From contig JAQTMY010000001.1 in the NCBI GenBank assembly GCA_028714095.1, positions 185,787 to 249,786 on the forward strand: a DNA stretch of 64,000 bases. Direction: 5' to 3'. This DNA comes from Candidatus Nanoarchaeia archaeon. Lineage in GTDB: Archaea > Nanobdellota > Nanobdellia > SCGC-AAA011-G17 > JACPNG01. This document shows positions 4,076 through 64,000 of this stretch, piece by piece. Made by a program: the position numbers and the translations under genes. The first letter of the stretch is position 1, and every line of letters begins with the position of its first letter. Under the pieces are notes generated by a model. That model was not told where the DNA came from and made no database searches. It saw nothing but the letters and a program-made list of their open reading frames with translations.

Positions 4076-4690
4076 ATGATAGAAAATGATATAGATATAC
4101 TAAAAAAACTGGTAAAAGAAGACAAAGGATTAACTTGCATATTTGGCGAGTCTGCAACAGGAAAATCCACTTTTTGCTTGATGTCTTCAATAAAAGAAGC
4201 AAGGAAAAATAACAAGGTTGTTTTTCTTGATACAGAAGGCTCTTTCTCAGTTGAAAGGATAAAACAAATGAATGGAAAGGATTGTTTGGATAATATTTTA
4301 TTAATGAACATAAAAAACTTTAGAGAACAACAAGACCAAATTAAAAACTTAAGTTTATTGTCTTCAAAAGTTTCATTGATAGTTATTGATACTCTAACCC
4401 ATCACTACAGAAATCTAATAAGAAAAAAACCAGAATTGGCCAGAGTAATGTTATTATCTCAGTTAAGAATGCTTAAAAAAATTTCAGAAAAGATTCCTGT
4501 TTTGATTACATCTCAGGTTTATCAGGACATAAATAATAATGTTCAAAAACCGGTTGGGGGGGGTCTTTTAATTAAAGAAGTTGATAATCTAATTAAATTA
4601 GTCAAGGAACCTAGAAAAGCTCTATTGTTAAAACCAGAACGTAATCATATTTATTTTAGAATTGAGAACGAAGGTATTTTTGAAAACTAG
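4076..4690 (+). CDS. RecA-superfamily ATPase, RadB/KaiC-like
   Basis: Walker A GESATGKST, followed by a hydrophobic beta strand and a D (LIVIDTL). Size is about 200 aa, as for RadB. Confidence 0.5.
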   Translation: MIENDIDILKKLVKEDKGLTCIFGESATGKSTFCLMSSIKEARKNNKVVFLDTEGSFSVERIKQMNGKDCLDNILLMNIKNFREQQDQIKNLSLLSSKVSLIVIDTLTHHYRNLIRKKPELARVMLLSQLRMLKKISEKIPVLITSQVYQDINNNVQKPVGGGLLIKEVDNLIKLVKEPRKALLLKPERNHIYFRIENEGIFEN

Positions 4691-5436
4691 ACTTCTACCT
4701 TAGAAAATAAATAAGTTCCAATTAAAGTAATAATCCCGGTTATAATTATAAGAATCAAGAAATCATTAAAAATACCTAAATGGAATGTTCCGATCAATGC
4801 TCCTCTGATACCATCAACTCCATAAGACAAAGGATTTAGTTTAGTAACAAAAGCCAATGCCCCAGGCAGACTATCTATTGGAAAAAGTGCTCCAGACAAG
4901 AAAAATAATGGCATAATAATAAAGTTCATAATCAACTGGAATCCCTGCATGTCTTCCAGTTTAGATGCAATTGCAGTTCCTAATGCAGTAAATAATATCG
5001 CAGTTATAAACATAAAGATGAATGATACAAACATCAAAGGAATATTAGATATTCTAAATCCTATGAATAATGAAATAATAAGAACTAAAAATCCTTGTAT
5101 CATCGCAACAGTTGCACCTCCAAGTGTTCTTCCAAGCATTATCTTATATCTTGAAACCGGAGCAACCAAGGTTTCTTTCAAAAAACCAAACTGCCTATCC
5201 CATATAACTTCTATTCCATTGAACATTGCAGTAAATAAGATACTCATTGCAATAATCCCAGGAGCTAAGAACTCAATATAATTCCCTCCTCCTGCTTTCT
5301 CAAAAATCGGACCAAATCCAAACCCTAAAGCAACCAAAAATAAAAGTGGCTGAGCCAAAGAGCCTATAACTCTTGCTTTTGATCTCCAGTATCTCTTGAT
5401 CTGTCTTAACCACATTATGTAAACAGGACTATTCAT
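4687..5436 (-). CDS. ABC-2 type transporter permease
   Basis: Six predicted TM segments; it overlaps the upstream ABC ATPase gene by 4 bp. Confidence 0.65.
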   Translation of the reverse strand: MNSPVYIMWLRQIKRYWRSKARVIGSLAQPLLFLVALGFGFGPIFEKAGGGNYIEFLAPGIIAMSILFTAMFNGIEVIWDRQFGFLKETLVAPVSRYKIMLGRTLGGATVAMIQGFLVLIISLFIGFRISNIPLMFVSFIFMFITAILFTALGTAIASKLEDMQGFQLIMNFIIMPLFFLSGALFPIDSLPGALAFVTKLNPLSYGVDGIRGALIGTFHLGIFNDFLILIIITGIITLIGTYLFSKVEV

Positions 5437-6287
5437 CTTCTCCCTCCATGGAACATTTTTCTTCTTAATCTTAAATGATCTTTGGCAGAAGCTGTTTCTT
5501 CCCTTATTGTTTTTCCAGTTAGTTTAAGAAAAGCTTCTTCAAGAGAACTAGAACTTGTATTTTTCTTTATTTCTGCTGGAGTCCCAATAGTAATTAATTT
5601 TCCATGGTCGATGATTGCAACCCTATTAGCTATCTTTTCAGCCTCTTCCATGTAATGGGTTGTAAGAAATACAGTCATTCTTTCTTTTTTATTCATCTCT
5701 CCAATGTATTTCCACAAGAAACTTCTCGTTTGAGGATCTAATCCAATTGAAGGTTCATCTAAAAATAAAATTTTAGGATGATGTATCAATCCTCTTGCAA
5801 TCTCTAATCTTCTTTTCATCCCTCCAGAAAAGGTTTTAACAAGATCATTTTTCCTGTCCTCAAGTTCAACAAGTTTCAATAATTCTTTTATCCTTTCCTC
5901 TCTTGTTTTTTTATCTACCTTATAAAAAACAGCATGAAACTCCATATTTTCATAAGCGGTAAGTTCATCATCTAAACTTGGATCCTGAAAAACAATTCCA
6001 AATGATTTTCTAACCTCATCTGTATCCTTGACAGGAGAATATCCATTTATATCTAAAGTTCCTGATGTAGGATGCAACAATGTTGTAAGCATTTTTATTG
6101 TTGTAGTTTTCCCAGCACCGTTCGGCCCTAAAAATGCAAAAACCTCTCCCTCTTCTACACTAAAAGAAATATTATCTACAGCTGTAAAGTCTCCAAACTT
6201 CTTGACAAGATCTTTGACAGTGATTATGTTTTTATCATTAACCATGCAAAAACAAACAAAAAAACAGTATATAAACCTTTTCTTCAA
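5433..6287 (-). CDS. ABC transporter ATP-binding protein
   Basis: Walker A GPNGAGKTT, ABC signature LSGGMKRR, Walker B ILFLDEPS. Confidence 0.85.
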   Translation of the reverse strand: MKKRFIYCFFVCFCMVNDKNIITVKDLVKKFGDFTAVDNISFSVEEGEVFAFLGPNGAGKTTTIKMLTTLLHPTSGTLDINGYSPVKDTDEVRKSFGIVFQDPSLDDELTAYENMEFHAVFYKVDKKTREERIKELLKLVELEDRKNDLVKTFSGGMKRRLEIARGLIHHPKILFLDEPSIGLDPQTRSFLWKYIGEMNKKERMTVFLTTHYMEEAEKIANRVAIIDHGKLITIGTPAEIKKNTSSSSLEEAFLKLTGKTIREETASAKDHLRLRRKMFHGGRR

Positions 6288-8402: not shown

Positions 8403-9014
8403 TTAGGGTTTTAAACAAACCCCATCCTTACATCCATTTGGACATATGATTTCTACAGAAGCAATTTTTCCAGCATTGCAATAATACTCTATAAGCAGGT
8501 CTTTGTATTTATTATCTTTGTAAATTCCACCCAAGGTTTGAGCGCATGTATCGGTTCTCTGATAATTTCCGTAAGTGTCATATCCCTTAATCTCTCCTCT
8601 AAGATAATAATTTTTTCCGCCGTCATTGTCGCTACAGGATTCACCTTCTCTGAATAATACTGAAATCTGAGCTGATTTTTGATCTTCTTTATTGCTATAA
8701 ACAGCAAGTCTGTTATATATTTCCACTTCGTTTACAGTTCTTATTTTTCTAGAAGGGATCATATCTCCAATACCATCAACGTCTACAGTAATAACTTTGC
8801 TCCTTCCAACATCTTCCAGAGTAATTGTCCTGCCGCCAACCACAACGCTTTCTCCTACTTTCAATTCATAGGTTCCCTGTAGGAATTTCGTTGCTTCTCC
8901 AGACAAATCACTTACTTCTGTGTTTGTATTAATTCCAAAGATTATCATTGATACAATTGCAACTACTGCTACAACAAATACAACCCAGAAGTTAGCATCA
9001 ATCTCTTTTTCCAT
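8403..9014 (-). CDS. Signal-anchored small Cys-rich protein, paralog 1 of 3. The start is probably the ATG at 9014, preceded by a GAGGTGG RBS.
   Basis: N-terminal TM (FWVVFVVAVVAIV). C-terminal motif is Y-x-C...C-P-N-G-C-x-D-G-x-C; this family motif is shared with 9105..9491 and 9568..9984. Confidence 0.5.
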   Translation of the reverse strand: MEKEIDANFWVVFVVAVVAIVSMIIFGINTNTEVSDLSGEATKFLQGTYELKVGESVVVGGRTITLEDVGRSKVITVDVDGIGDMIPSRKIRTVNEVEIYNRLAVYSNKEDQKSAQISVLFREGESCSDNDGGKNYYLRGEIKGYDTYGNYQRTDTCAQTLGGIYKDNKYKDLLIEYYCNAGKIASVEIICPNGCKDGVCLKP

Positions 9015-9104
9015 CAATCTCCACCTCTTTTTAGTAAAAATAATTAAAAAGAATAAAAGACTCAAACTATTTAAATCTTTACAATAAATTAAAAAATAAA
9101 AAAA

Positions 9105-9491
9105 TCAAACTCTGATGTTTTCTCTTATGCAGGCTCCATTTTCACATCCATTTGGACATACATAAGATTCTACTTTCAAATAACCATCGTTGTCGCACCA
9201 GTATTCATAAACTAGGTTATCTACTGTAAATTGATCTCCCTCAAAATATCCGGGGTCAGCCATATCTTTCAAACAAGTATCTTGTATATCAGAATATTTT
9301 CCACCGCTCCACTGTCCAGCAGTCCTGCCTGCTTCAAAAAAGTCTTCTCCGCCGTCAGTTTCTATACAGACCTCTTTTGTAGCCAATCCTGAAACTTTTT
9401 CCGAGGCTGAATTTACAATAGAGAATGCAGCCATAGCAACTATTGCAACAACAGCTACTATAGAAACAACCCAAAAATTACTTTTTTCCAT
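9105..9491 (-). CDS. Signal-anchored small Cys-rich protein, paralog 2 of 3
   Basis: MEKSNFWVV... TM anchor; DGGEDF...YWCDNDGY...CPNGCENGAC. An AGAGGTG RBS lies 6 nt upstream. Confidence 0.55.
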   Translation of the reverse strand: MEKSNFWVVSIVAVVAIVAMAAFSIVNSASEKVSGLATKEVCIETDGGEDFFEAGRTAGQWSGGKYSDIQDTCLKDMADPGYFEGDQFTVDNLVYEYWCDNDGYLKVESYVCPNGCENGACIRENIRV

Positions 9492-9567
9492 TCAAACACC
9501 TCTTTGTTAATATAAATTAAAAAATAAAGAAATATTTAAAGGTTTTTAAAAAATAAAAAAGAAATTA

Positions 9568-9984
9568 TTAAAACCAATTTCCTGTTCTAGTCAGCTTTGT
9601 CAAACGACAGGCCCCATTACTGCATCCTTTTGAACAGCTCCTTGTGGTTTCTTTTACAGTAAAGCCACTTCCGCAAGAATATTCTAGCAAACGGCTGGAA
9701 GTATTGTAAAGTGAAGGCCATTTATCAGAGTAACATATATCCTCGTAGGTTACTGTTCCATTAATGTAAAACTGGGTCACAATCCCTTTAATCTCATAAT
9801 TTCTTCCCCCATCGCTATCTTTGCATGAAAGAAGATTTGGATCAGAACTAATATCCTTAGAGACTTCGCCTATGATATTCTCACCATTATTCTCATTCAC
9901 GCTGAAGAAAATAGTCATCCCTGCTATGGCTACAACAGCAAAAATTGAAACAAATAGGAGATCTTTACTAATTTTTTCCATCAT
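9568..9984 (-). CDS. Signal-anchored small Cys-rich protein, paralog 3 of 3
   Basis: TM anchor; CKDSDGGRNY...YSCGSG...CSKGCSNGAC. An AGAGGTG RBS lies upstream. Confidence 0.55.
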   Translation of the reverse strand: MMEKISKDLLFVSIFAVVAIAGMTIFFSVNENNGENIIGEVSKDISSDPNLLSCKDSDGGRNYEIKGIVTQFYINGTVTYEDICYSDKWPSLYNTSSRLLEYSCGSGFTVKETTRSCSKGCSNGACRLTKLTRTGNWF

Positions 9985-10036: not shown

Positions 10037-10639
10037 CTAAATATCTAAAATCTTCCCTACTCTCCCAACATTAATAACTTTAGTATCTCCAATTTTTTCT
10101 TCAAGTCCTTCTGCTTCATGAACATGACTGCATAACAAAATGTTTGGTTTGAATTTTTTGATAGCTTTTGTTACAGCCTCACTTCCAAAAACAAAATCAG
10201 AAAGTTTTTCCATCTTGCTTCCTTTTGGATGAGTATGTGTTACCATTATCTTGGTCTTGACATCTTTAAGATGATCAAATCCCTGTTTTAATAATTTAAA
10301 GGTTTCATCATTGCTTATTTGATGGACTCCAATATTAGTTGCACTTGCCCCAAAAAAACCAACATCCTTATACTTTACACTGTATCCATGCAAATTCTTT
10401 ACCCCATACAATTCAGCCATAAAATCTGCAGTAGCAACACTTTCATGATTCCCAGGAATTAGAATAATTCTTTGTTTTCTTTTGACAAAAGGCCCTAAAA
10501 TTCCCTCTGTAGATAACTCTGCCTGTGTCAAATCTCCGCATAAAACAACTAATTCAACTTTTTCTTTCTCAGCCATCTTAGCTAATTTCTCAGCCAGTTT
10601 GGAATCTCCATGAATATCCCCCGCAGCAAGTATTTTCAT
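10037..10639 (-). CDS. Calcineurin-like metallophosphoesterase
   Basis: GDIHGD, GDL, GNHE and HTHP motifs. Confidence 0.75.
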   Translation of the reverse strand: MKILAAGDIHGDSKLAEKLAKMAEKEKVELVVLCGDLTQAELSTEGILGPFVKRKQRIILIPGNHESVATADFMAELYGVKNLHGYSVKYKDVGFFGASATNIGVHQISNDETFKLLKQGFDHLKDVKTKIMVTHTHPKGSKMEKLSDFVFGSEAVTKAIKKFKPNILLCSHVHEAEGLEEKIGDTKVINVGRVGKILDI

Positions 10640-10691
10640 GCAAATAAGAAGTGTAACAAACCTTTTAAAGATTTTGTACCTAGATTAGAAG

Positions 10692-11513
10692 ATGCAAAAA
10701 ATAATAAAGCTCGCAAAAGAACTTGGTTTTTGTTCTGGGGTAAGAAGAGCGATAGACATAGTTGAAAAACAAAACAAGAAGTTAAATGTTTTAGGTGATC
10801 TAGTCCATAATAAAATAGTTATTGAAAATCTGAAAAAAAAAGAGATTAGTTTTATCAGTTCAATTGAAGAAGCAAACTCCAATGTAATAGTAATAACCGC
10901 TCACGGTCTTGCTGAATCAGTAAAAAAAGAAATAAAAAATAAAGGTTATGAGATTATAGATACAACCTGCCCCTTTGTTGAAAAAATACACAAACAGACA
11001 AAAGAAAAAGAAAAAAATGGTTATTTTATAGTTTTGATAGGCGAAAAGAATCATATTGAAGTTAAAGGCGTTGTTAAGGACTTAAAGAATAAAATTGTGA
11101 TTGATGATGAATCAGAGATTAAGAATATCCCAGATAAAAAAACCGCTGTATTTTGCCAGACAACCCAGGATACTGAAAAAGCAGAATTTCTTTTGAAAAG
11201 AATAAAAGAAAAAATAAAGAATGTTGAGTTTTATGATACAATCTGCAAGGCAACAAGAGACAGGCAGGAATCAGCAAAACAGCTTGCAAAGGAAGTTGAC
11301 CTAATGATAGTCATTGGGGGAAAAAACAGCAATAATACTCTAAAATTAAAAGACGTTTGTTCAAGTATTATTGAAACAAAACACATAGAATCCATAGGAG
11401 AAATAGACAAATCCTGGTTTGACAATAAAAAAACGATTGGGGTAACAGCAGGAGCATCAACTCCCCCCTATCTAATCGATGAAATAGTAACCAAAATAAA
11501 AAGTTTAAAATGA
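10692..11513 (+). CDS. ispH: 4-hydroxy-3-methylbut-2-enyl diphosphate reductase (IspH/LytB)
   Basis: GFCSGVRRAI, AHG, TCPFV-K-H, QTT, ICKAT-DRQ, VIGGKNSNN and GVTAGASTP blocks all align with LytB. Confidence 0.85.
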   Translation: MQKIIKLAKELGFCSGVRRAIDIVEKQNKKLNVLGDLVHNKIVIENLKKKEISFISSIEEANSNVIVITAHGLAESVKKEIKNKGYEIIDTTCPFVEKIHKQTKEKEKNGYFIVLIGEKNHIEVKGVVKDLKNKIVIDDESEIKNIPDKKTAVFCQTTQDTEKAEFLLKRIKEKIKNVEFYDTICKATRDRQESAKQLAKEVDLMIVIGGKNSNNTLKLKDVCSSIIETKHIESIGEIDKSWFDNKKTIGVTAGASTPPYLIDEIVTKIKSLK

Positions 11514-12526
11514 AAGATATAGAAATTTATAAAGAAAAAGTAAACAAAGAATTAATTTCTTTTCTTAATAAAAAACTCGAGGAAAATAAAAAGATTCATC
11601 CTTCAGTAAAGGAAATAATAGAAAACATTACAGAATACACTATGAGAAAAGGCAAAAGGATAAGGCCTTTGACAGCAATTTTTGCCTATAAATGTTTCAA
11701 GGATGATGATAAAATAATACTTCCTTCACTCTCCTTGGAATTAATCCAGTCCTATTTGTTGATTCATGATGATATTATGGATAAATCAGATTTGAGAAGG
11801 GGCCTGCCAACAATCCATAAGATATATGAAAAAAAAGACAAAAGTCTTGGAAACCCTGCAGCAATACTTGCAGGAGATATTTGTTCAAGTTATATTTATT
11901 ATCCAGTTCTAAATTCAGGATTCAATCCAGAAGAAAAAATTAAGGCAATAAATTATATTTCCTGGATACTTGAAAGAGAATGTCTTGGCCAAAGCCTAGA
12001 CGTTATTCCTAACTTTAAGGAATTAAAGGAAAGAGATATCTGGAATATTTATGAATTAAAAACAGCAACGTACACGATGCAGGGGCCTATCTACTTAGGG
12101 GCAGTATTGGCAAATGCTCCTGAAGAAAAGATAAAAAAACTGCAGGCCTATGCTTATAATATCGGAGTTGCCTTCCAGTTGCAGGATGATATCAACGGAA
12201 TTTTTAATGATGTTAAAGAAACAGGTAAAACTAATTCAGATGCAAAAGAAGGTAAAAAAACTTTGTTAATTATAAAGACTCTTGAACTCTGCAATAAAAA
12301 AGAAAAAGAGTTTATACTTGAAAAATGGGGAACAGAAAATATCTCTCAGAAAGAATTAGAAAAAATAAAGGAAATAATAAAAAGTTCAGGCGCTTTATCA
12401 TATTGCAATGAAAAAGTAATTAGTTTAATAGAAAAAGGAAAATCCTCAATAAAAAACCTAGAGTTAAGACAGGAAGGTAAAACCTTTTTATTAGAACTGG
12501 CAGATTATATCAAGAACCTGTATTAA
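11510..12526 (+). CDS. Short-chain trans-polyprenyl diphosphate synthase (GGPP synthase-like)
   Basis: First Asp-rich motif LLIHDDIMDKSDLRRG; second motif FQLQDDINGIF (atypical DDxxG). There is a 4-bp ATGA overlap with the ispH stop. Confidence 0.8.
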   Translation: MKDIEIYKEKVNKELISFLNKKLEENKKIHPSVKEIIENITEYTMRKGKRIRPLTAIFAYKCFKDDDKIILPSLSLELIQSYLLIHDDIMDKSDLRRGLPTIHKIYEKKDKSLGNPAAILAGDICSSYIYYPVLNSGFNPEEKIKAINYISWILERECLGQSLDVIPNFKELKERDIWNIYELKTATYTMQGPIYLGAVLANAPEEKIKKLQAYAYNIGVAFQLQDDINGIFNDVKETGKTNSDAKEGKKTLLIIKTLELCNKKEKEFILEKWGTENISQKELEKIKEIIKSSGALSYCNEKVISLIEKGKSSIKNLELRQEGKTFLLELADYIKNLY

Positions 12527-13239
12527 TTTTTGCCAAATCTTCTATCTCTTTTGCAGTAATCCTCAATCGCTTTAACTAAATCCTCTTTTTCAAACTCAGG
12601 CCATAATTTATCTGTAAAGTAAAATTCTGCATAGCTTCCCTGCCATAACAAGAATCCAGATATTCTTTTCTCTCCAGAGGTTCTTATTACCAAATCAGGA
12701 TCTGAATTAAGATAAAGATTTTCTCCGAATAACTTTTCGTTTATCTCCTCTAATTTTAACTTTCCATTTTTAACCTGTTCAGCAATCCTTTTAGTAGCAT
12801 CAACAATCTCGGCTCTCCCACCATAAGCCATTGCAAAGTTTACAAAATATTTATCATTATTCTTTGTCAGTTCCATCAATTTTTTCATTTTAGTATAAAC
12901 TTCTTTTGGGAACATCTCAATCCTTCCAATAAACCTGATCCTTATCTTATTTTTATTTAATTCATCAATTCTTTCTAGTACATTATCAAAAGATTCACTA
13001 AAAATCCTCATAAGCATATCAAATTCCTCTTTTGGCCTTCCAAAATTCTCAATAGAGAATGCATAAAGAGTTAGTTCTTTAATTCCAAGCTCAGAAGCCC
13101 AATTCAAAAGTTTCTCGATTTTCTCAGCCCCATACTCATGTCCTTTCCATGGTTTAAGCATTAATTTCTTTGCAAACCTTCTATTTCCATCTAAAATAAT
13201 GCCAACATGCTTAGGAACATTATTTAAACTTGGATTCAT
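12523..13239 (-). CDS. uppS: Undecaprenyl/di-trans,poly-cis-prenyl diphosphate synthase (cis-IPTase)
   Basis: HVGIILDGNRRFAKK N-terminal motif and a cis-prenyltransferase fold-length protein. Confidence 0.85.
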   Translation of the reverse strand: MNPSLNNVPKHVGIILDGNRRFAKKLMLKPWKGHEYGAEKIEKLLNWASELGIKELTLYAFSIENFGRPKEEFDMLMRIFSESFDNVLERIDELNKNKIRIRFIGRIEMFPKEVYTKMKKLMELTKNNDKYFVNFAMAYGGRAEIVDATKRIAEQVKNGKLKLEEINEKLFGENLYLNSDPDLVIRTSGEKRISGFLLWQGSYAEFYFTDKLWPEFEKEDLVKAIEDYCKRDRRFGKN

Positions 13240-35199: not shown

Positions 35200-36390
35200 A
35201 TGTTAGTGGAAATCCTAATCGCAATTCTTATAGGAATAGTCTGCGGAATAATCTCAGGCATAACTCCAGGAATTCATATTAATCTAATTTCAGTTTTAAT
35301 CTTAACTTTTTCTCCATTCCTATTGATTTATTTTTCTCCATTGGCTTTAGCTTCATTGATAATTGCAATGGGCATTATCCATACATTCCTTGACGCAATT
35401 CCATCTATTTTTCTCGGAGCACCAACAGAGGAAACAGCCATCTCAATTCTTCCAGGCCATAGAATGTTATTGGAAGGAAAAGGTTATGAAGCAGTAATGT
35501 TAACAATATTCGGAACAGTAACTGCATTAATAATTTCTTTTTTGTTTATTCCATTGGCTTTAGTCTTATTCCCCTTAGTCTATGAAAAAATAAAAATTTA
35601 CATAGGAATTATCCTTTTGTTTATAATTGGCTTTTTGTTGTTAAAGGAAAAATCAAAACTATTTTCATTGATGATTTTTCTCATGGCCGGAGTTTTAGGA
35701 ATAGCAACATTAAACATGGGGATTAAAAATGTCTTATTCCCTTTGCTTTCAGGACTATTCGGAATCTCAACTTTAATCATAAGTTTAAAAGACAAGCCAG
35801 TAATACCAAAACAAAAGATAACATTTCCAAAATTAGACAAGTCAAGTTACAAGGTTTCATTTATTTCGTTCATTACAGGGGCAATGTGTTCTTTTATGCC
35901 AGGTCTTGGTCCAGCCCAGGGAGCTGTATTAGGCTCCCAATTTATAAAAAAAATCCAGCAAAAAGATTTTTTGATTTTGGTTGGGGGGCTAAGCGCAGTT
36001 AATTTTTTCCTAAGCCTAATCTCCTTATACAAATTGGAAAAAGCAAGAAATGGGGCAGTAGCAATAGTCCTTAAGTTGGTAAATACAATAAATCTTAAAC
36101 AGTTTCTTATCCTTGTCTCAGTAACATTAATTGTTTTGCCAATAGCCGTTCTTCTCTCAGTCAAACTTTCAAAAGCTTTTTCTTTTTTAATAACAAAAGT
36201 AAACTATCAAAAATTATGTCTCTCAATAATATTATTTATCTTAATCTTAACAATCTTTTTATGTGGGATTCCTGGTTTTCTCATTCTTTTATTGTCAACT
36301 TTGATAGGAGTAATCCCCCAGTTAGCAAATACCCCAAAAAATCATTTGATGGGTTGCCTTATTTTGCCTGTTTTGTTTTATTTCCTTTGA
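35200..36390 (+). CDS. TctA-like/DUF112 membrane protein
   Basis: Two repeats carrying the G-x-x-PG-(I/L)-G motif (GITPGIHIN and MPGLGPAQGA) in a polytopic protein. Confidence 0.5.
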   Translation: MLVEILIAILIGIVCGIISGITPGIHINLISVLILTFSPFLLIYFSPLALASLIIAMGIIHTFLDAIPSIFLGAPTEETAISILPGHRMLLEGKGYEAVMLTIFGTVTALIISFLFIPLALVLFPLVYEKIKIYIGIILLFIIGFLLLKEKSKLFSLMIFLMAGVLGIATLNMGIKNVLFPLLSGLFGISTLIISLKDKPVIPKQKITFPKLDKSSYKVSFISFITGAMCSFMPGLGPAQGAVLGSQFIKKIQQKDFLILVGGLSAVNFFLSLISLYKLEKARNGAVAIVLKLVNTINLKQFLILVSVTLIVLPIAVLLSVKLSKAFSFLITKVNYQKLCLSIILFILILTIFLCGIPGFLILLLSTLIGVIPQLANTPKNHLMGCLILPVLFYFL

Positions 36391-39300
36391 TTATTTTAAA
36401 AATCCCAAGAAATTTCTTGCCATCCAAAGAATTAAATGAATCTTTAATGTCTTCTTTTTTCCATCTAGCCTTCAAAAGATTTGCCTCAATGACATTATCC
36501 TTAATCCCTTTTGATCTTGCATTTTTGATATAATTGATTACCTTGCTTAAATCTTTTTTAGGTTTCTCCTTAACAATCTTTTTCCCTTTCTTTAATTTAA
36601 AATAATAAAATCCTGCAACAGCAAAGATTATTAAGAAAATTATTATAAATACAAGCCAAGGGAACCCAGAACTTTCTTCTTCAGTATAATTGACTGTAGG
36701 TTCATAAATATTTTCCTCTTCTTCTGTGTTTTCATCTCCATAAAATTCACTTCTGCTGAGGTCTGTCCCGCACGTATTATCTTCCTTGCATATTTTACCT
36801 GAGGGGCATCCGCAGTCTTTGCAATTGAAAGCTAATATTCCTTTCTCACATTTCATGGGTTTTGATGAAGAACATATCCCGTTCTTTGTTCCATCTCTGC
36901 ATGTACTGCTACTTGAAGAACTTAATGTAGTATCACAATCATCGTCATCTTCATCAGTATCTCCATCACAGTCATTGTCTAAGTCATCACTGCATGAACT
37001 CTCTTCATCCTCCTCATAATCATCTCCGTAATCACACTCATCCCATTCTAAATCCTCATTGCATTCTTGTGTTGAATCCTCACAGACTCCTTCCTGTAAA
37101 CTACAATCCTGTTCATCCCCTTCTTCATCACATTCACATCCTTCATCAATGCTCCCATCGCAGTCATTGTCCAGGTCATCACATAAAGTTTCACTTGATT
37201 CATAATTTATAGAACTATTATAAACACAAGTACTCCAGGAATTACTTACACAAGTTGAATTTATTTTAGCGCAAACTCCAGATCCACAAACTTTAGTATC
37301 TCCATTAGAACAAATAGTTGTTGTTGAAGTAGTATCCATCTCATAGCAAGGACTGTCGCTAAAAGTATTAAACATACTACAGGCCTTATATAATTTGGTT
37401 GAGTCTTCTGCTTTGGATTCAGGATCAAATACCAATAAAGTAGATTTGCCGTCATTGGATTCTGTACTAATCCCGCTGCCAACAGTACTTAAATAATATA
37501 ATTTTCCTTCATATTGAACACTTGCCCCATTTCCAATCGGGAATTCTGGCTGATTAATTGTCTTAACATCAATCCATTTCTTTTGATCAAAATCATAATA
37601 TTCAACATTAGTAGTTCCTTTTTTATTGTTTAGAGTAGCTCCTCCGATAACATAAACTTTATTCCCCTTAACAACTATCCCAGGATCCAAACCATGCTCA
37701 TAAATACTATCCTGCAATTGGGTCCACGAATTTGTTATAGGATCATACATATGGAATAATTTTTGGTTTGAAGCATAATTTCTCCCATTAATATTAAATA
37801 TCCTCCCTCCAACAACATAAACTTTATCATTATAGCTAAACATACCAGGACTTTTTCTTGGGTTAGGAGCAGATTGTAATTTAGCTCTTCCTCCATTTGA
37901 AGCAAGAGTTTGAAATTTTGGGGTATATGGTTTTTCAGTATAGTATGTTATCTTTGAAGTATCAATAACAAATAAATCAGAAAGCCAATTTACTTTTAAT
38001 CCAAGTTCATCATAATTTTTAAAATCAAGTTCATCGTTCCCATACATTGCATTTGCAATCCCCCCAAAAACATAAATTTTATTTCCAATAACTGTACTTC
38101 CGTGGTACATGGTATTTTGTTGACCATAATTTACCCCTCTTCCGCAGTTTTCAGTTCTGCAATCAACTCCAATCGATGCAACTCTCCCCCACCAGTCTAT
38201 TTCAGGATTAAATGAATAAATTACAAATAAAGTATGGGCATTTACAGCAGGCAATCCAAACCCTGCAATAAGATATAGCCAATCCCCAACATTTTCAAGA
38301 CTATTCCCAACAAGGGGTTTATTACCTTCTTCATTTGCTCCCCCTCCTGTTTGAGAAGGGTCATACTTAACAACTAACCAATTTGTATAATCTGGATCTG
38401 GGGCCACCCATTTCTTTTCAGGTTCGTTATGTGTTTCCCATAATCCTGTAGTAAAATTATATTTCTCCATCTGCCCCACAATTGTAAAAGTAGATTTAGG
38501 TTTGGGAGTTGTACCCCATGCAACAAGCCAGCAGTATTTATCTATCCCCCACCATTTCTCTCCTAAATTAGTTCTTCCCGCAATCGCATATAATCCTCCC
38601 TCGTTAATTGCAGAACCTCCTTCTATATGTGGGAACATTGAATCAGGTAATCTTGTCCAGACCCCTTGACAATTTGTACATGTGGTACTGCACTTTTGAT
38701 ACTCATTCCATATACATTCTGCAGTGCAATCACTTCCAGAACAATCTTGGTCAATACCATCCCCGCAAATATCCTTAGATCCTTTTTTCACTAATGGATT
38801 TTTATCATCACAATCCTCACTTGAACAAATCCCATCACCGTCTTCATCAGAACCCTTTCCTGCCATTGTACATCTTCCGGGGATAAGAACCCAGGAAGGA
38901 TAACTTTCCTCACTTTCCTTACAAGGTTCATAATTATTAGGATCATAAACATTATCTACCGAGATAGGAAATTGTGTAACAATATTCTTTCCAGCACATC
39001 CATAACTCTCTCCTTCCTTAATCCCCCAGCAACCATTATCATCATTGTCGATCATCCCATCACCGTCATTGTCAATACCATCAGAACAAGCAGGTTTCTT
39101 TAGCTCACTAATTTCCTTCTCATCAAACCATTCTTCCCATGGTTGGGTAGATTTAGATTGTTTCCATTTAGCATAAGCACATTTGCAGGCCACATCTTCT
39201 TTACCTGGTTGTAAATCTATCTTTCCATCATTATCATTGTCGATGCCATCATAACAACTTCCAGTACCAATATTCTCAGAATTAAAATAAGTATAACACG

Positions 39301-40399
39301 AGCAGTCAGACGCTTTAGTTATTGTTTTTTCAGTTGCTCCGTCAAAGCATAAGGATTTGCTGTTTCCATCCTTGTCATATTGATTTACATAAAGGCATTT
39401 ATCATAAACAACTCCTTCAAGTATCAATAAATTATAAAGACTGTATTTGAAATTCAATGGTTTTGTATTACAACTTAAATCATTAAATCCTCGGATAAAA
39501 TTGGAGGATATTTTATTGTCAGTTTCAATCTTGGAAAATAATTTTAAATCAATACAACCATACCTGAGTTTTGCATTATCCCCCAATTCATTGCCGTTGT
39601 GAGCAACAACATTAAATAAATAACCTCCCCCTAAATCTCCAAAACTAAATTGCCCGTTAAAATCTGCTCCAGTCTCTAATTTTAATCTAGAACTTAAAAC
39701 ATCTCCATAGAAATATTCAAACTCGTTTACTCCAGAAGTTTTAAGATTAACTGAAGCATCTGTGATATCAAGCCTTTTGGCATTTTCATTTATAAAATTA
39801 TAAAATCCTTCCAGAACACCAATACCATAATTATAATCATCCTCACATTTTTTCTTTGCGGTTTCATCAGCTGCTTTTGTCAAACAATCTTTCTTTGTTT
39901 TTTCTAAGTTTGTTCTTCCTTCTGAAAAATGATTTAAGTTAGAGCTTTCAAAAGAAATTTTTCCTTCATATTTATTGCACACTAATAAAACTTCATTATA
40001 ACTCTGATAAACACTATCTCCTATCTTAACAGGTTCAAATAAAGTATTGTCTCCTTTGTAGACAAAAGCACAATCTCCTTCTTTAACCGCTTGGGAATAT
40101 GTTATTTTTGTAGCAATTTCATTCTCCCAAACATTTCCGGTTCCAGGAGTCTTGCTTACACATTTATTACTACTACAAGTTTGCAAGGCCCCACAGCAAA
40201 TATCATTGCAACAAGTTCCTGTACAGCAATCAACAGAACTGCAGCTTTGCCCGACATGAGCACAACTTCCTGGAGTGGAAGGATTATCTGGATCATTATA
40301 GCTTGGATCTTTGCTTATTGCAATTACAAAAACTGAAAGTAATATTGTTAATAACATAACCAGAATAATTTTATTTTTAGATTGCATAATTAAACTCAT
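36359..40399 (-). CDS. Giant (1346 aa) Cys-rich surface protein: signal peptide, Kelch-type beta-propeller repeats, acidic Cys-Asp repeats (C-x-D-x-D-N-D-C-D-G), a C-terminal TM anchor and a Lys-rich tail
   Basis: Propeller repeats: VYVVGGR...YDPITNSW and VYVIGGAT...YDFDQKKW. Acidic repeats: DDLDNDCDGSIDEGC and SDDLDNDCDGDTDEDDDDC. C-terminal TM FPWLVFIIIFLIIFAVAGFYYF, followed by KLKKGKK. Confidence 0.7.
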   Translation of the reverse strand: MSLIMQSKNKIILVMLLTILLSVFVIAISKDPSYNDPDNPSTPGSCAHVGQSCSSVDCCTGTCCNDICCGALQTCSSNKCVSKTPGTGNVWENEIATKITYSQAVKEGDCAFVYKGDNTLFEPVKIGDSVYQSYNEVLLVCNKYEGKISFESSNLNHFSEGRTNLEKTKKDCLTKAADETAKKKCEDDYNYGIGVLEGFYNFINENAKRLDITDASVNLKTSGVNEFEYFYGDVLSSRLKLETGADFNGQFSFGDLGGGYLFNVVAHNGNELGDNAKLRYGCIDLKLFSKIETDNKISSNFIRGFNDLSCNTKPLNFKYSLYNLLILEGVVYDKCLYVNQYDKDGNSKSLCFDGATEKTITKASDCSCYTYFNSENIGTGSCYDGIDNDNDGKIDLQPGKEDVACKCAYAKWKQSKSTQPWEEWFDEKEISELKKPACSDGIDNDGDGMIDNDDNGCWGIKEGESYGCAGKNIVTQFPISVDNVYDPNNYEPCKESEESYPSWVLIPGRCTMAGKGSDEDGDGICSSEDCDDKNPLVKKGSKDICGDGIDQDCSGSDCTAECIWNEYQKCSTTCTNCQGVWTRLPDSMFPHIEGGSAINEGGLYAIAGRTNLGEKWWGIDKYCWLVAWGTTPKPKSTFTIVGQMEKYNFTTGLWETHNEPEKKWVAPDPDYTNWLVVKYDPSQTGGGANEEGNKPLVGNSLENVGDWLYLIAGFGLPAVNAHTLFVIYSFNPEIDWWGRVASIGVDCRTENCGRGVNYGQQNTMYHGSTVIGNKIYVFGGIANAMYGNDELDFKNYDELGLKVNWLSDLFVIDTSKITYYTEKPYTPKFQTLASNGGRAKLQSAPNPRKSPGMFSYNDKVYVVGGRIFNINGRNYASNQKLFHMYDPITNSWTQLQDSIYEHGLDPGIVVKGNKVYVIGGATLNNKKGTTNVEYYDFDQKKWIDVKTINQPEFPIGNGASVQYEGKLYYLSTVGSGISTESNDGKSTLLVFDPESKAEDSTKLYKACSMFNTFSDSPCYEMDTTSTTTICSNGDTKVCGSGVCAKINSTCVSNSWSTCVYNSSINYESSETLCDDLDNDCDGSIDEGCECDEEGDEQDCSLQEGVCEDSTQECNEDLEWDECDYGDDYEEDEESSCSDDLDNDCDGDTDEDDDDCDTTLSSSSSSTCRDGTKNGICSSSKPMKCEKGILAFNCKDCGCPSGKICKEDNTCGTDLSRSEFYGDENTEEEENIYEPTVNYTEEESSGFPWLVFIIIFLIIFAVAGFYYFKLKKGKKIVKEKPKKDLSKVINYIKNARSKGIKDNVIEANLLKARWKKEDIKDSFNSLDGKKFLGIFKIIKGNKTKQAK

Positions 40400-55547: not shown

Positions 55548-56357
55548 CTAATCAAGAGGACTCTTGATTTTTTTGATTTGTTCCTGTGAAACATGTGTAT
55601 AAATCTGCGTTGTACTGAGTTGTGAATGCCCAAGTAACTCCTGTATCAGCCTTATGTCCGTCCCATTCTCGAGCAAATGAGTGGCAAAACTATGCCTTAG
55701 GGTATGTGGTGTAACCCTCTTCTTAATCCCTGCCTTAAATGCGACATTCTGTATGATTTTCTGTATATTTCTCGTCGTCAAACCCCTCTTTTCTTTTCCA
55801 GGGAATAGGTAAGGAGAGGCTTCAGGAAGTGTTTGAATATACTTTTCAAGGTCCTTTAATATCTTTCCAGCAACAATAGTTATTCTGTCTTTGTTCCCTT
55901 TTCCAGACTTAACCCTTATTGTTTTTTCCTTGAAATCAATTTGTTCTGTCTTTAGGTTTACAAGTTCAGAAACCCGGAGTCCAGTACTATATAACAATTC
56001 AATTATTAGCCTAGTTTTATTGTTCTTGGCATTTTTTATAAGCAAAAAAATTTCATCTCTGCTTAAAACTTCCGGGTTTGACTTGGGAATCTTGGGAGTT
56101 TTTAAATTAACTATATTTTTTCCCAAAATTTCATCATAAAAAAACTTCAATGCGCTCTTCTTCAAGGAAACACTTCTTGGCTTCAAGCTTAAATCAGAGA
56201 CTAAATAACTCATATACTTCTTGATATCCTCTTCTTCTACCTCTTTTGGTTCTTTTTTGATATAATCAAGAAATAATTTGTTATGCCTTATGTAAGAGCT
56301 GAGAGTTTCCTTGGAAAAACCCCTCAATTTTAATTCCATCTCAAGTTTATCTAACAA
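55548..56357 (-). CDS. Tyrosine recombinase, XerC/XerD (archaeal XerA)-like. The ORF as listed starts at a TTG codon.
   Basis: C-terminal catalytic region HTLRHSFATHLLENGTDIRLIQELLGHSQLSTTQIYTHV (R...HxxR...Y). Confidence 0.85.
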   Translation of the reverse strand: MLDKLEMELKLRGFSKETLSSYIRHNKLFLDYIKKEPKEVEEEDIKKYMSYLVSDLSLKPRSVSLKKSALKFFYDEILGKNIVNLKTPKIPKSNPEVLSRDEIFLLIKNAKNNKTRLIIELLYSTGLRVSELVNLKTEQIDFKEKTIRVKSGKGNKDRITIVAGKILKDLEKYIQTLPEASPYLFPGKEKRGLTTRNIQKIIQNVAFKAGIKKRVTPHTLRHSFATHLLENGTDIRLIQELLGHSQLSTTQIYTHVSQEQIKKIKSPLD

Positions 56358-62707: not shown

Positions 62708-63222
62708 TCTAAAAACAGTTTTTTATAATTAAATTTTTCAAGTTCTTTCTCTATCTCTTCAAAACTTTTCCCACAAAGCATCCCGCCAGCCAAAAATTCT
62801 TCATGAGTAACATCTGCTAAGCAAAAATCCGGCATATCAAAAAAGTCTTTTTCATCTATATCTTCAAACTCAAAATCAACAATAATAAGCCCACTTAAAG
62901 CTCCCTGGAAAACATCAATCTCAGCAATCCTGTTCCCATATTTGTAATAATATCTTATCTTGTGGGTTTTTTTACCATCTATTTTACTCAGATCCTTAAA
63001 CTCTCCCTCTGTTAAAATTATGGTTTGCTCTTTCTGTTCTGAAGCATCGTCCTCAATAGGCTCTTTCTTAGTCATTTCATATTTATCTCCATTTTTTCTT
63101 ATTCTTAATGTTGGATGCCTTCTGGATTTAGGTACGTAAACATCAATAATTTCCTTAAAATTACAATTTTTTAATCCTTCAGGAATCTTCTTAGCTAAAT
63201 AAGTTCTTTCCAATTCAATCAT
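62704..63222 (-). CDS. CYTH-domain (triphosphate tunnel metalloenzyme) protein
   Basis: N-terminal IELERTYL (the ExExK motif) and alternating acidic/basic beta strands. Confidence 0.5.
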   Translation of the reverse strand: MIELERTYLAKKIPEGLKNCNFKEIIDVYVPKSRRHPTLRIRKNGDKYEMTKKEPIEDDASEQKEQTIILTEGEFKDLSKIDGKKTHKIRYYYKYGNRIAEIDVFQGALSGLIIVDFEFEDIDEKDFFDMPDFCLADVTHEEFLAGGMLCGKSFEEIEKELEKFNYKKLFLD

Positions 63223-64000
63223 TTTATCCTCCTTGATGCATCTAAAAGATCTTCCACAATCTCATCTGCTTTAATATCAAACTTCTTATCGGTTCCGGCT
63301 TTGCCTGTTTTAACCAATATTGTTTTTAATCCAAAATCTTTCCCGCATTTAATATCACTTGTCTGGTCACCGATAAAGTAGGAATTTTTAATGTCAATCC
63401 TTCCGTTATAATCATTAACCGCTTTCTCGATCAAGCCCGTTTTTGGTTTCTTACAATTACATTCTTCTGTAATAGAATGAGGGCAGTAATAAATCTTGTC
63501 TATCTTGATTCCATATGGCCCTAATAGTTTAAACATATATCCATTTAATTTAAAAAAATCTTCTTTTGAAAAATAACCTAATCCAATCCCTGCCTGATCT
63601 GTAGCTATGATTATTTTGTATCCTTTATCCTGAATATCTTTTAGTCCTTCCAACGCATTCTTTGTAAACGTAAATTTTTCTGGTTCATAAAGATAAGAAA
63701 TACCTTCATTAATAACCCCATCCCGATCTAGAAATACAGCTTTAATCATTTCTTTGTCTTTATTTTCTATTGAAACATAATCTTCCTCAGAAGGCAGGTT
63801 TTTTATTTTTTCAAAAATGGCTGTAGTTGATGTTTCTTCTTTGATGGGAATTAGAATAACGCTTCCGCCATATTTTTCAACCAGAGGTTTTGAAGTTAAT
63901 TTATCCAGACTATAGTCTCCTGCTTTGATGTAAAAATCTGGTTTTATAAGTTCAATGTTAAGATTGTTATTAATCTCATTAAATAAAAAAACATAATCAA
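63219..64000 (-). CDS. HAD-IIIA phosphatase (GmhB-like), apparently fused to an upstream cytidylyltransferase-like domain (HldE domain II-like). The CDS is 5'-truncated by the window end.
   Basis: FLDRDGVIN (HAD motif I), CxH...CxC zinc ligands and GDQTSD (motif III). The reading frame stays open upstream of the annotated ATG (63749) to the window edge, encoding ...KAGDYSLDKL...EKYGGSVILIPIKEETSTTAI. Confidence 0.55.
   Translation of the reverse strand, partial: DYVFLFNEINNNLNIELIKPDFYIKAGDYSLDKLTSKPLVEKYGGSVILIPIKEETSTTAIFEKIKNLPSEEDYVSIENKDKEMIKAVFLDRDGVINEGISYLYEPEKFTFTKNALEGLKDIQDKGYKIIIATDQAGIGLGYFSKEDFFKLNGYMFKLLGPYGIKIDKIYYCPHSITEECNCKKPKTGLIEKAVNDYNGRIDIKNSYFIGDQTSDIKCGKDFGLKTILVKTGKAGTDKKFDIKADEIVEDLLDASRRIK

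Follow-up and report, generated by a model that had tools for sequence, protein, structure and literature searches.

A complete MEP pathway of bacterial derivation has been on record for Woesearchaeota and Nanoarchaeota since 2018 (PMC8204110, Castelle et al. 2021; PMC8421398, Huang et al. 2021; PMC10936187), and the passages of all three papers that concern the archaeal pathway cite Castelle and Banfield 2018. In the published clusters, the genes of the whole pathway lie together at one place, and ispDF is often fused. In related archaeal loci, the full order of the supercluster formed with the prenyl synthase genes is dxs-ispG-dxr-ispDF-ispE-ispH-GGPPS, with UppS converging on its end. Locus L065 carries the operon dxs-ispG-dxr-ispDF-ispE-ispH, and in L002 and L052 (Woesearchaeota YT1_182) the MEP operon runs on into GGPPS, in L002 also into UppS.

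How does the present locus compare? It lies in a 64-kb stretch of DNA, the whole of which was analysed and is called the window here. Like the Woesearchaeota and Nanoarchaeota clusters, it combines a DPANN host with a bacterial-type IspH and has no mevalonate genes nearby; as in L002 and L052, ispH is followed by a gene for a GGPPS-like synthase, and as in L002 a UppS gene is convergent. Judged by gene order, the module in the window is the 3' end of the DPANN MEP-prenyl synthase supercluster. In contrast to the published clusters, neither the locus nor the rest of the 64 kb contains dxs, ispG, dxr, ispDF, or ispE. The window IspH also stands apart from the operon-type IspHs, to which it is 42-51% identical, and falls in a separate small clade (99% bootstrap). 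The original prediction treated an MEP enzyme in an archaeon as unexpected; this premise does not hold, since the complete pathway is published and relatives of the window IspH lie in full MEP operons. An MEP enzyme in a DPANN archaeon is already known, and the erosion of the cluster is the less ordinary part.

A second archaeal MEP architecture is found in L111 (GCA_054474095.1), where ispH points away from the run dxr-ispD-ispF-ispE-ispG-dxs. L111 resembles the window in its archaeal context (Orc1/Cdc6), and its IspG is the closest relative with a named context (70%) of the IspG that adjoins window-clade IspH. Unlike the window, L111 has a complete cluster with ispD and ispF unfused and no adjacent prenyl synthase, and the IspHs of L111 and the window share only 37% identity.

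Partial MEP pathways have been described in bacteria. Mycoplasmoides gallisepticum and Mycoplasma tullyi have all MEP enzymes but the final ones, and Listeria has a partial pathway ending at MEcPP (PMC13001223, a review; PMC10663253, a survey); among 4,400 species, none was found that circumvents IspG or IspH (PMC10663253). The window archaeon appears to share with such reduced or host-associated bacteria an incomplete route after genome reduction, which implies partner dependence or a non-canonical role. The direction of loss is the reverse: the bacteria keep the early steps and shed the terminal Fe-S enzymes, IspG and IspH, first, whereas in the window the terminal enzyme survives, and in its nearest relatives the terminal two (IspG and IspH).

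The window and its archaeal host

The host is a DPANN (Nanoarchaeia) archaeon, of the very small, symbiotic type, and the surrounding 64 kb are unmistakably archaeal. Pfam scans of approximately 60 window ORFs identified PolB, Cdc48, a RadA-like protein, PolD DP1 and DP2, Orc1/Cdc6, LonB, PAN, Hef, and PAC2. The NCBI record of the IspH (MDD5253681.1, on a 509,171-bp contig) bears the label "[Candidatus Nanoarchaeia archaeon]", and the scans and the label together confirm the archaeal gene context that had been proposed. GC content is uniform across the window (0.31-0.36). Scans for tRNAs and Rfam families found none in the window and were of no use for taxonomy. An exact match to the window protein is present on a 4.1-kb Logan contig, and the source sample corresponds to run SRR22315509.

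Table 1. Features of the ispH locus, in window coordinates
Feature	Position	Strand	Basis
calcineurin-like metallophosphoesterase, divergent from ispH; 5' cluster boundary	10037..10639	-	Pfam Metallophos, 63.8 bits
A/T-rich promoter-like element CTTTTAAAGATTTT, archaeal TATA-type	10662..10675	+	conserved spacer block
ispH (IspH/LytB), 273 aa	10692..11513	+	ORF list; Pfam LYTB, TIGR00216
ATGA overlap, ispH stop TGA / synthase start ATG	11510..11513	+	read from sequence
short-chain trans-isoprenyl diphosphate synthase (GGPPS/FPPS-like), 338 aa	11510..12526	+	Pfam polyprenyl_synt
uppS-type cis-prenyltransferase, 238 aa	12523..13239	-	TIGR00055, Pfam Prenyltransf

The coordinates, strands, and sizes of IspH, the synthase, and UppS agree with the original prediction (Table 1). 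The overlap of the ispH stop codon with the start of the GGPPS-like gene is real and can be read directly in the DNA. The convergence of uppS on the pair was likewise found as described, the stop codons of the synthase and of UppS overlapping in TTAA at 12523-12526. On the 5' side of ispH, the window contains the Metallophos gene, three small Cys-rich ORFs, and TopoIA.

IspH and the adjoining prenyl synthases

By its sequence and its predicted structure, the window gene is a complete, structurally orthodox IspH. The protein matches Pfam LYTB (PF02401) with 293.6 bits (cut-off 24.5) over profile positions 1-267 of 267, and TIGR00216 with 256.2 bits (cut-off 187.85); among PDB sequences, it matches 3dnf (E=1.5e-52) and also E. 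coli IspH. The ligands of the [4Fe-4S] cluster are C14, C93, and C185 (E. coli C12, C96, and C197), at positions that are invariant in 135-136 of 136 homologs. The catalytic glutamate is present as E123 (E. coli E126), and the claim of a genuine IspH with three cluster cysteines and this glutamate is thus borne out. Also kept are H39, H71, and H121 (E. coli H41, H74, and H124), as well as T157/T158, S213, N215, and S256 (E. coli counterparts Thr167, Ser225, Asn227, and Ser269). The window IspH retains 43 of 43 family-conserved alignment columns, and 18 active-site positions are all kept in every IspH from an ispG-less locus, with no clade-specific substitution. The motif blocks listed in the original prediction are all present, except that the block given as GxxNSSN is actually GGKNSNN (N212-S213-N214-N215). 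Position 214, which is S226 in E. coli, is an Asn, and the family varies there between A, S, G, and N.

The AF2 model of the protein (pLDDT 95.2, pTM 0.86) has the three-domain trefoil alpha/beta fold. It matches 3dnf in Foldseek (E=7e-27) and can be aligned with the E. coli IspH:HMBPP complex at a TM of 0.93-0.94 and an rmsd of 1.7-1.8 A. The window IspH has in common with the canonical IspH/LytB enzymes (Aquifex aeolicus 3DNF; E. coli 3KE8/3F7T) the fold, the three Cys ligands, and the His/Glu/Thr/Ser/Asn set of the active site; with Aquifex IspH it also shares the short form of ~280 aa. It differs from canonical bacterial IspH in its host, which is an archaeon, and in its genomic partner, which is a prenyl synthase. 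Within 10 kb of ispH, most of the bacterial loci examined have neither MEP nor prenyl-synthase genes. The window gene has a bacterial ancestry, as had been suggested. An isomerase-like role in IPP/DMAPP metabolism is not favoured; the chemistry of IspH is reductive dehydroxylation, and the active site matches that of the canonical enzymes. IspH activity on HMBPP draws on reduced ferredoxin or flavodoxin as donor; a ferredoxin-motif search of the window found no ferredoxin or flavodoxin partner for IspH.

The trans-prenyl synthase matches Pfam polyprenyl_synt (PF00348) with 188.3 bits. Together with the ATGA overlap, this supports the earlier view that a GGPPS-like gene is coupled to ispH, and the overlap suggests that the two genes are translationally coupled and co-transcribed. 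Which product does the synthase make? Its best NCBIfam matches, GGPP_syn with 172.7 bits (NF041003, cut-off 500 bits) and IdsA with 159.8 bits, are both far under the equivalog cut-offs, so the protein falls short of an equivalog-level match to GGPP synthase. The FARM reads LLIHDDIMD, with a first DDxxD motif and a bulky residue, Tyr, at position -5, and the second Asp motif is DDING, not the canonical DDxxD. The family is certain from these sequence features, and the product may be C15, C20, or of another chain length. The convergent protein matches TIGR00055 with 275.4 bits (cut-off 109.55) and Pfam Prenyltransf (PF01255) with 270.4 bits, and is 58-64% identical to the UppS in the same position of L068, L062, and L063.

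Absence of ispG and erosion of the cluster

The succession of ispH, a GGPPS-like synthase, and a convergent UppS is found in the window and in L068, L062, L063, and L112. The nearest relatives of the window IspH are 58-59% identical to it (59% for L068). The backbone of L068 consists of Cdc48-RadA-TopoI-Metallophos followed by ispG-ispH-synthase, with UppS-wHTH on the converging side, and is the same as that of the window save for ispG. In L068, a 1,050-bp ispG is located between Metallophos and ispH. The ispG-ispH pair is likewise present in L112 and on the P0004 contig, and in these three closest ispG-bearing relatives ispG overlaps ispH. Metallophos holds the same position in the window, L062, and L068, and no functional tie to IspH is claimed for it. 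The spacer between Metallophos and ispH measures 52 bp in the window and 54 bp in L062, with the ispG ORF cleanly absent.

A three-way alignment of the spacers between Metallophos and the first gene contains an invariant element, CTTTTAAA(G/T)ATTTT. The same promoter-like element is found 5' of ispH in the window and in L062 and 5' of ispG in L068, and the distance from the CTTTTAAAGATTTT element to the ispH start codon downstream of it is ~20-30 nt. Its position and conservation suggest that it functions as a promoter. Read from these alignments, the MEP cluster is eroded in the window lineage: the ispG ORF is gone, and the promoter-like element now abuts ispH.

Has ispG been lost once or repeatedly? 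The ispG-less loci of the window and L062 are not sisters, because NJ bootstraps give 94% for {P0002-5} and 6% for {P0001+P0003}, and two non-sister loci without the gene point to repeated loss. In L067, an 81-aa ispG relic (IspG residues 23-104) lies next to an intact IspH; the relic (~80 aa) is equally similar to many IspGs, and the trace of its origin is uninformative. The window-clade IspG resembles bacterial/CPR IspG (~70%) more than it does the operon-type IspG of DPANN archaea (57-59%). NJ trees with bootstraps do not tell a single transfer from several as the origin of the window and operon clades.

Gene order differs in other members of the group. In L069, an IspE-like kinase is encoded upstream of IspH, and ispG is convergent downstream; both L069 and L063 have the order IspE-like-GGPPS-IspH, with ispG convergent or locally absent. 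The synthase and IspH genes of L069 flank a 254-aa ORF; considered as a possible IspG remnant, this ORF showed no similarity to IspG.

Where might the rest of the pathway be? In the 64-kb window, tblastn with DPANN MEP proteins found no MEP remnant (all E>0.6), and no other MEP or mevalonate Pfam/NCBIfam family occurs among the ~60 ORFs scanned; the 64 kb, with no dxs, dxr, ispD, ispE, ispF, or ispG, are part of a genome of at least 509 kb. When the IspGs of L065 and L068 were used as queries, neither an IspG from the 509,171-bp contig of the window nor an IspG named Nanoarchaeia was among the top 120 matches of either. For the L068 query, with a detection power of ~65%, this negative is moderate evidence; the operon-type L065 query is blind for the window clade, because the L068 IspG itself is missing from its matches listed. 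The source data of Fig. 3a of Huang et al. 2021 (PMC8421398) include 49 MAGs from the Woesearchaeota subgroups B, C, E, and I; 5 of these have ispH, and not one of the 49 has any of the other six MEP genes. The MAGs are incomplete genomes, and their tie to the window lineage is uncertain.

Possible source of HMBPP and alternative explanations

As for the supply of lipids and glycan carriers in DPANN archaea, the usual assumption is that most of these organisms simply steal finished lipids. An intact IspH with a GGPPS-like synthase and UppS but without ispG suggests a dependency on the import of a late C5 precursor, where the cell itself would carry out the last reduction and all of the chain building. 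We hold with middling confidence that the locus represents a retained last MEP step plus chain elongation, probably acting on HMBPP scavenged from an MEP-using partner. The route would lead from HMBPP to IPP and DMAPP, on to C15/C20 prenyl-PP, and finally to long polyprenyl-PP, with IspH as the last step and the adjacent trans synthase and UppS as elongation. Most likely, the organism has given up its own synthesis of HMBPP and would obtain the compound from an MEP-using (bacterial) partner. IspH, presumably kept under selection, would turn HMBPP into both C5 units in one step, and therefore no IPP isomerase would be needed; its products would supply the two adjacent prenyl synthases. To our knowledge, HMBPP and MEcPP exist solely in MEP-using organisms; therefore, the partners would be bacterial.

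A non-canonical use of IspH, including salvage of HMBPP, had been among the original proposals. It gains support from the missing ispG at the syntenic site, from the 64 kb without a further MEP or mevalonate gene, and from the published ispH-only MAGs, and it is on these grounds that we infer salvage. Several observations weigh against it. The genes dxs, dxr, and ispD/E/F, or a relocated or divergent ispG, could sit elsewhere in a genome of at least 509 kb, and MEP genes are dispersed in the window clade, for example the IspE-like kinase and convergent ispG of L069. The IspG database test has limited power, and the support from the MAG table has the limits given above. We know of no HMBPP transporter, and the surroundings of the window cluster show no sign of one; nor did the window yield a ferredoxin or flavodoxin partner. 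A cell that imports HMBPP could perhaps take up IPP and DMAPP directly.

More tentatively, it is possible that a group of DPANN archaea has pared back the MEP pathway it acquired, beginning with the first steps, to ispG and ispH or to ispH alone, using the MEcPP or HMBPP of a bacterial partner. Such top-down reduction would have left certain lineages with ispG+ispH and others, that of the window among them, with just ispH, always tied to prenyl-chain synthases. If this is true, HMBPP would be a cross-fed metabolite, and the ispH-only genotype would mark association with a bacterial, not an archaeal, host. Salvage of HMBPP would be a concrete, testable nutrient link.

Could IspH instead carry out just the usual last step of an MEP pathway that is complete but scattered, with ispG and the five other genes elsewhere on the 509-kb contig or on other contigs, so that only the operon has come apart? 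Gene order in the clade is fluid, as L069 and L063 show, but the clean deletion of ispG in two non-sister lineages and the relic in L067 look like loss, not relocation. Sister lineages have complete MEP operons and the literature counts Woesearchaeota and Nanoarchaeota as MEP users, yet published MAG sets include genomes with ispH only, and no upstream MEP gene was found in the 64 kb. The lack of an IspG of the window genome, an annotated MAG, among the top 120 matches of both queries also speaks against dispersal, although for the window lineage these searches had ~65% power or were blind. Endogenous HMBPP would be the simplest source of substrate for a fully conserved IspH. Overall, we regard a dispersed pathway as rather unlikely; if the remaining genes are elsewhere in the genome, the locus would be one more archaeal MEP case of the published type, with a rearranged operon.

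It is improbable that IspH has been kept for another reaction, either on a different allylic or acetylenic diphosphate or in redox or regulatory moonlighting. IspH enzymes are promiscuous in vitro, where they catalyse acetylene hydration and isoprene formation, and the retention of IspH where ispG has been lost would fit such a role. However, none of the residues that bind HMBPP or the diphosphate has been lost, the 18 active-site positions are free of clade-specific change, and the model superposes closely on substrate-bound E. coli IspH. In one lineage after another, ispH still overlaps or adjoins a gene for a prenyl diphosphate synthase, which argues that its products are C5 diphosphates.

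A functionless relic, that is, the last undecayed gene of a dying pathway, is a very improbable explanation and already disfavoured. The cluster is visibly eroding, as seen from the L067 relic and the ispG deletions, but the conserved columns and catalytic residues of IspH are all intact despite the 58-59% identity to its nearest relatives; therefore, the protein would have diverged for long under constraint. In addition, retention of IspH recurs in several independent lineages, and the start/stop overlap with the synthase has been maintained. An assembly or binning artefact joining a bacterial fragment to archaeal DNA, in favour of which there is the bacterial ancestry of ispH and nothing more, is effectively refuted by the uniform GC, by archaeal genes on either side on one contig, by an identical stretch in a separate assembly of a sequencing run (L001), and by the same synteny in L062, L068, and L112, three further assemblies made independently.

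A metagenome scan with lysine-rich peptide patterns of IspH returned mostly bacteria and added two moderately close loci.

IspH and its archaeal setting

The window protein is a member of the IspH family in every defining feature that could be tested. It covers the entire Pfam LYTB profile (293.6 bits) and scores 256.2 against TIGR00216, above the curated threshold of 187.85. Alignment to the Aquifex and E. coli enzymes of known structure reveals all functional residues: the 4Fe-4S cluster cysteines (C14, C93, C185), the catalytic glutamate (E123), three conserved histidines (H39, H71, H121) and the rest of the substrate-binding set (T157/T158, S213, N215, S256). The motif blocks named in the original prediction are present, except that its 'NSSN' reads NSNN, at a family-variable position (136 homologs); its positions for the three genes listed first in the table agree exactly with the ORF calls.

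The genomic context is archaeal, as had been claimed, and of DPANN type. Pfam families among the roughly 60 window ORFs scanned include PolB, Cdc48, a RadA-like ATPase, topoisomerase IA, both PolD subunits, Orc1/Cdc6, LonB, PAN, a Hef-type helicase-nuclease and PAC2, and GC is even (0.31-0.36). The IspH is identical to NCBI MDD5253681.1 ('Candidatus Nanoarchaeia archaeon'), encoded on one 509,171-bp contig. The same stretch was independently assembled from run SRR22315509, which, together with the archaeal context and even GC, rules out an assembly artefact as the source of ispH.

Is an MEP enzyme unexpected in an archaeon? The original prediction held so, but for this group the claim fails. 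Castelle et al. 2021 (PMC8204110) described 52 Woesearchaeota genomes, forming a monophyletic clade, that have the MEP pathway with its genes co-located; according to Huang et al. 2021 (PMC8421398), subgroup J carries dxs, dxr, fused ispDF, ispE, ispG and ispH, and Woesearchaeota lack a mevalonate pathway; and a survey of oxygen-deficient zones (PMC10936187) restated the MEP finding for Woesearchaeota and Nanoarchaeota. The IspH gene and its horizontal origin are already known and annotated.

Among relatives of the window IspH, locus L065 has the order dxs-ispG-dxr-ispDF-ispE-ispH. In L002 and L052 (Woesearchaeota YT1_182) the MEP operon extends into a GGPPS-like gene, followed in L002 by a convergent UppS. 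The window trio therefore corresponds to the 3' end of a supercluster type already known. It belongs to this DPANN family of MEP-prenyl synthase clusters at that end only: the co-located upstream genes were tested for and are absent.

A second archaeal MEP architecture occurs at L111:5833-12886 (GCA_054474095.1), where ispH diverges from dxr-ispD-ispF-ispE-ispG-dxs, ispD and ispF are unfused, and the cluster adjoins Orc1/Cdc6 and SecDF. Its IspH and that of the window share only 37% identity, and its IspG is about 70% identical to that of L068, the locus closest to the window. IspG proteins of the window IspH clade are about 70% identical to bacterial or CPR sequences versus 57-59% to those of complete DPANN clusters such as L065; more than one transfer may therefore have taken place.

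Features of the window, with strand and product length
Feature	Position	Strand	Length
IspH	10692-11513	+	273 aa
Polyprenyl synthase	11510-12526	+	338 aa
UppS-type cis-prenyltransferase	12523-13239	-	238 aa
ABC-2 permease and ABC ATPase	4687-6287	-	
Three tandem six-cysteine paralogs	8403-9984	-	220, 128 and 138 aa
Kelch/MopE-motif protein	36359-40399	-	1,346 aa
Tyrosine recombinase	55548-56357	-	
GmhB-like phosphatase	63219-63749	-	

The IspH stop and synthase start share ATGA, and the convergent stops of synthase and UppS share TTAA. UppS scores 275.4 against TIGR00055 (cut-off 109.55). The family assignment of the synthase is certain and its product length a prediction: the first motif, LLIHDDIMD, has Tyr at -5 like short-chain enzymes, the second, DDING, is atypical, and the protein scores well under every equivalog cut-off.

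The window synthase is 29-34% identical to its counterparts at L068:7457-8470 and L062:10830-11849 (a further clade member), which have Trp at -5 and share 79% identity with one another; identity in the flanking IspH and UppS is 58-62%. It is nearer (40-42%) to synthases of L063 and L069, two other archaeal loci, and of L047 (Patescibacteria). The enzymes in the slot after IspH are not orthologous within this tight IspH clade, a pattern that suggests replacement of the synthase in place. At L047:8949-10843 (a CPR MAG) a GGPPS-like gene lies directly upstream of IspH, with no further MEP gene within 10 kb of it, and IspH likewise lacks MEP neighbours at several Moranbacteria loci.

Loss of ispG at the locus

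The window IspH (P0001) falls in a clade of five proteins, P0001-P0005, with 99% NJ bootstrap. The IspH of L068, the closest member, is 59% identical to it, and the two loci share a backbone: one flank carries Cdc48, RadA-like, TopoIA and Metallophos genes, the other the synthase, a convergent UppS and a small wHTH gene. What L068 has in addition is a full-length ispG with its stop codon overlapping the start of ispH, and the ispG-ispH pair recurs in two further clade members (the P0004 contig and L112). The element CTTTTAAA(G/T)ATTTT is invariant across the spacers of window, L062 and L068; it precedes ispG in L068 and immediately precedes ispH in the other two, where the Metallophos-ispH spacers are 52 bp (window) and 54 bp (L062). 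The ispG ORF has thus gone cleanly, with the putative promoter region retained. Window and L062 (P0003) are not sisters, as {P0002-P0005} receives 94% NJ bootstrap versus 6% for {P0001+P0003}; two independent losses would thus be the simplest history.

In L067, a more distant relative (GCA_964445995.1), only IspG residues 23-104 remain directly upstream of an intact IspH. This 81-aa ORF (L067:9724-9969), 63% identical to L068 IspG, is a pseudogene relic of ispG. No ispG was found within 10 kb in L063 (IspE-like-synthase-IspH, facing UppS) or upstream of IspH in L113; in L069 (IspE-like-synthase-ORF-IspH) it lies convergent downstream.

The IspE-like GHMP kinase of L063:8069-8980 and L069:2014-2925, encoded immediately before synthase-IspH in archaeal surroundings of ribosomal and RNAP genes, is diverged. 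Its best matches are all IspE, its TIGR00154 score is 128.6 bits (cut-off 138.7), and it is 28% identical to a DPANN IspE from a complete cluster; its substrate may have changed.

Where could HMBPP come from?

IspH reduces HMBPP to IPP and DMAPP in a single step, so no isomerase is required to begin chain elongation. Here the gene of an orthodox IspH runs in the same direction as that of a short-chain trans-prenyl synthase and overlaps it at the stop/start junction, with a cis-prenyltransferase gene facing the pair; upstream MEP genes are locally absent and ispG is specifically deleted. The conserved A/T-rich element would drive transcription of ispH and the synthase gene as one unit, with translational coupling between the two, and the C5 products would pass to a C15/C20 and then a long polyprenyl diphosphate. 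HMBPP would be taken from outside, presumably from an MEP-using partner; since no bypass of IspG is known (PMC10663253), a genome without ispG must acquire it externally. We consider such a truncated pathway with HMBPP salvage about evenly balanced between right and wrong. Its weak points are that there is no transporter candidate, that no electron donor was found in the 64-kb window, and that this window is the only part of a genome of at least 509 kb on which the reading is based. The polarity reverses that of reduced bacteria, whose partial MEP pathways keep early steps and lose terminal enzymes (PMC13001223, PMC10663253).

A complete but dispersed endogenous MEP pathway is a possible, if rather unlikely, alternative. 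In the window, tblastn found no MEP gene remnants (all matches E>0.6), and no mevalonate-pathway families occur among some 60 ORFs. An IspG query from complete DPANN clusters listed no match from the window's contig; that search is blind for this clade, because L068 IspG is also missing from its listed matches. With L068 IspG as query, one close relative (88%, P0004 contig) was listed. Every other listed match was at most 71% identical, those named being bacterial or CPR, with none from the window's contig and none named Nanoarchaeia. Calibration on 105 locus pairs (IspG identity = 0.65 x IspH identity + 28.7, SD 3.6) predicts about 67% for an IspG of this genome, and the listed matches reach down to about 65-66%, so detection power is roughly 65%: moderate evidence of absence, not proof. 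The Fig. 3a data of Huang et al. (PMC8421398), on which the authors make no remark in this respect, lend independent support: subgroups B, C, E and I have ispH in 5/49 MAGs and the other six MEP genes in 0/49, a single ispE and a single ispH occur in subgroup G, and subgroup H has ispH in 6/20 versus ispG in only 2/20.

Superposition of the AlphaFold model (pLDDT 95.2) on HMBPP complexes of E. coli IspH gives TM 0.93-0.94 and rmsd 1.7-1.8 A, and a different substrate or role for IspH appears improbable. That it is a functionless relic is very unlikely, since each IspH without an adjacent ispG keeps all 18 active-site and cluster positions, and the window protein keeps 43/43 columns with 93% or higher conservation among 136 homologs at only 58-59% identity to its nearest relatives.

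Among the papers that could be searched, none was found to discuss a stand-alone archaeal IspH. As far as could be found, recurrent loss of ispG from loci that keep an intact IspH coupled to a synthase is previously undescribed.

Other genes of the window

Relative to L062 and L068, the ABC-2 permease and ABC ATPase form an insertion that separates the RadA-like gene from TopoIA. The three paralogs between TopoIA and Metallophos, each of which has a hydrophobic helix at the N-terminus and, at the C-terminus, a six-cysteine module that ends ...C(P/S)xGCxxGxC, are missing from that site in the same two loci and present in L001, the independent assembly of the window stretch. Across positions 1-64000 no tRNA gene was found, and no Rfam family reached its gathering threshold. 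The GmhB-like D-glycero-D-manno-heptose-1,7-bisphosphate phosphatase (NF006506, 160.6 bits, slightly below the cut-off of 178) is a bacterial LPS-type sugar-nucleotide enzyme within an archaeal genome. The 1,346-aa product encoded beside the PolD large-subunit gene, which combines Kelch repeats with metal-binding motifs of the MopE type, is probably a large surface protein. The tyrosine recombinase (Phage_integrase and SAM-like N-terminal domains) is probably an archaeal Xer-type enzyme; L062 has a similar gene about 9 kb from IspH.
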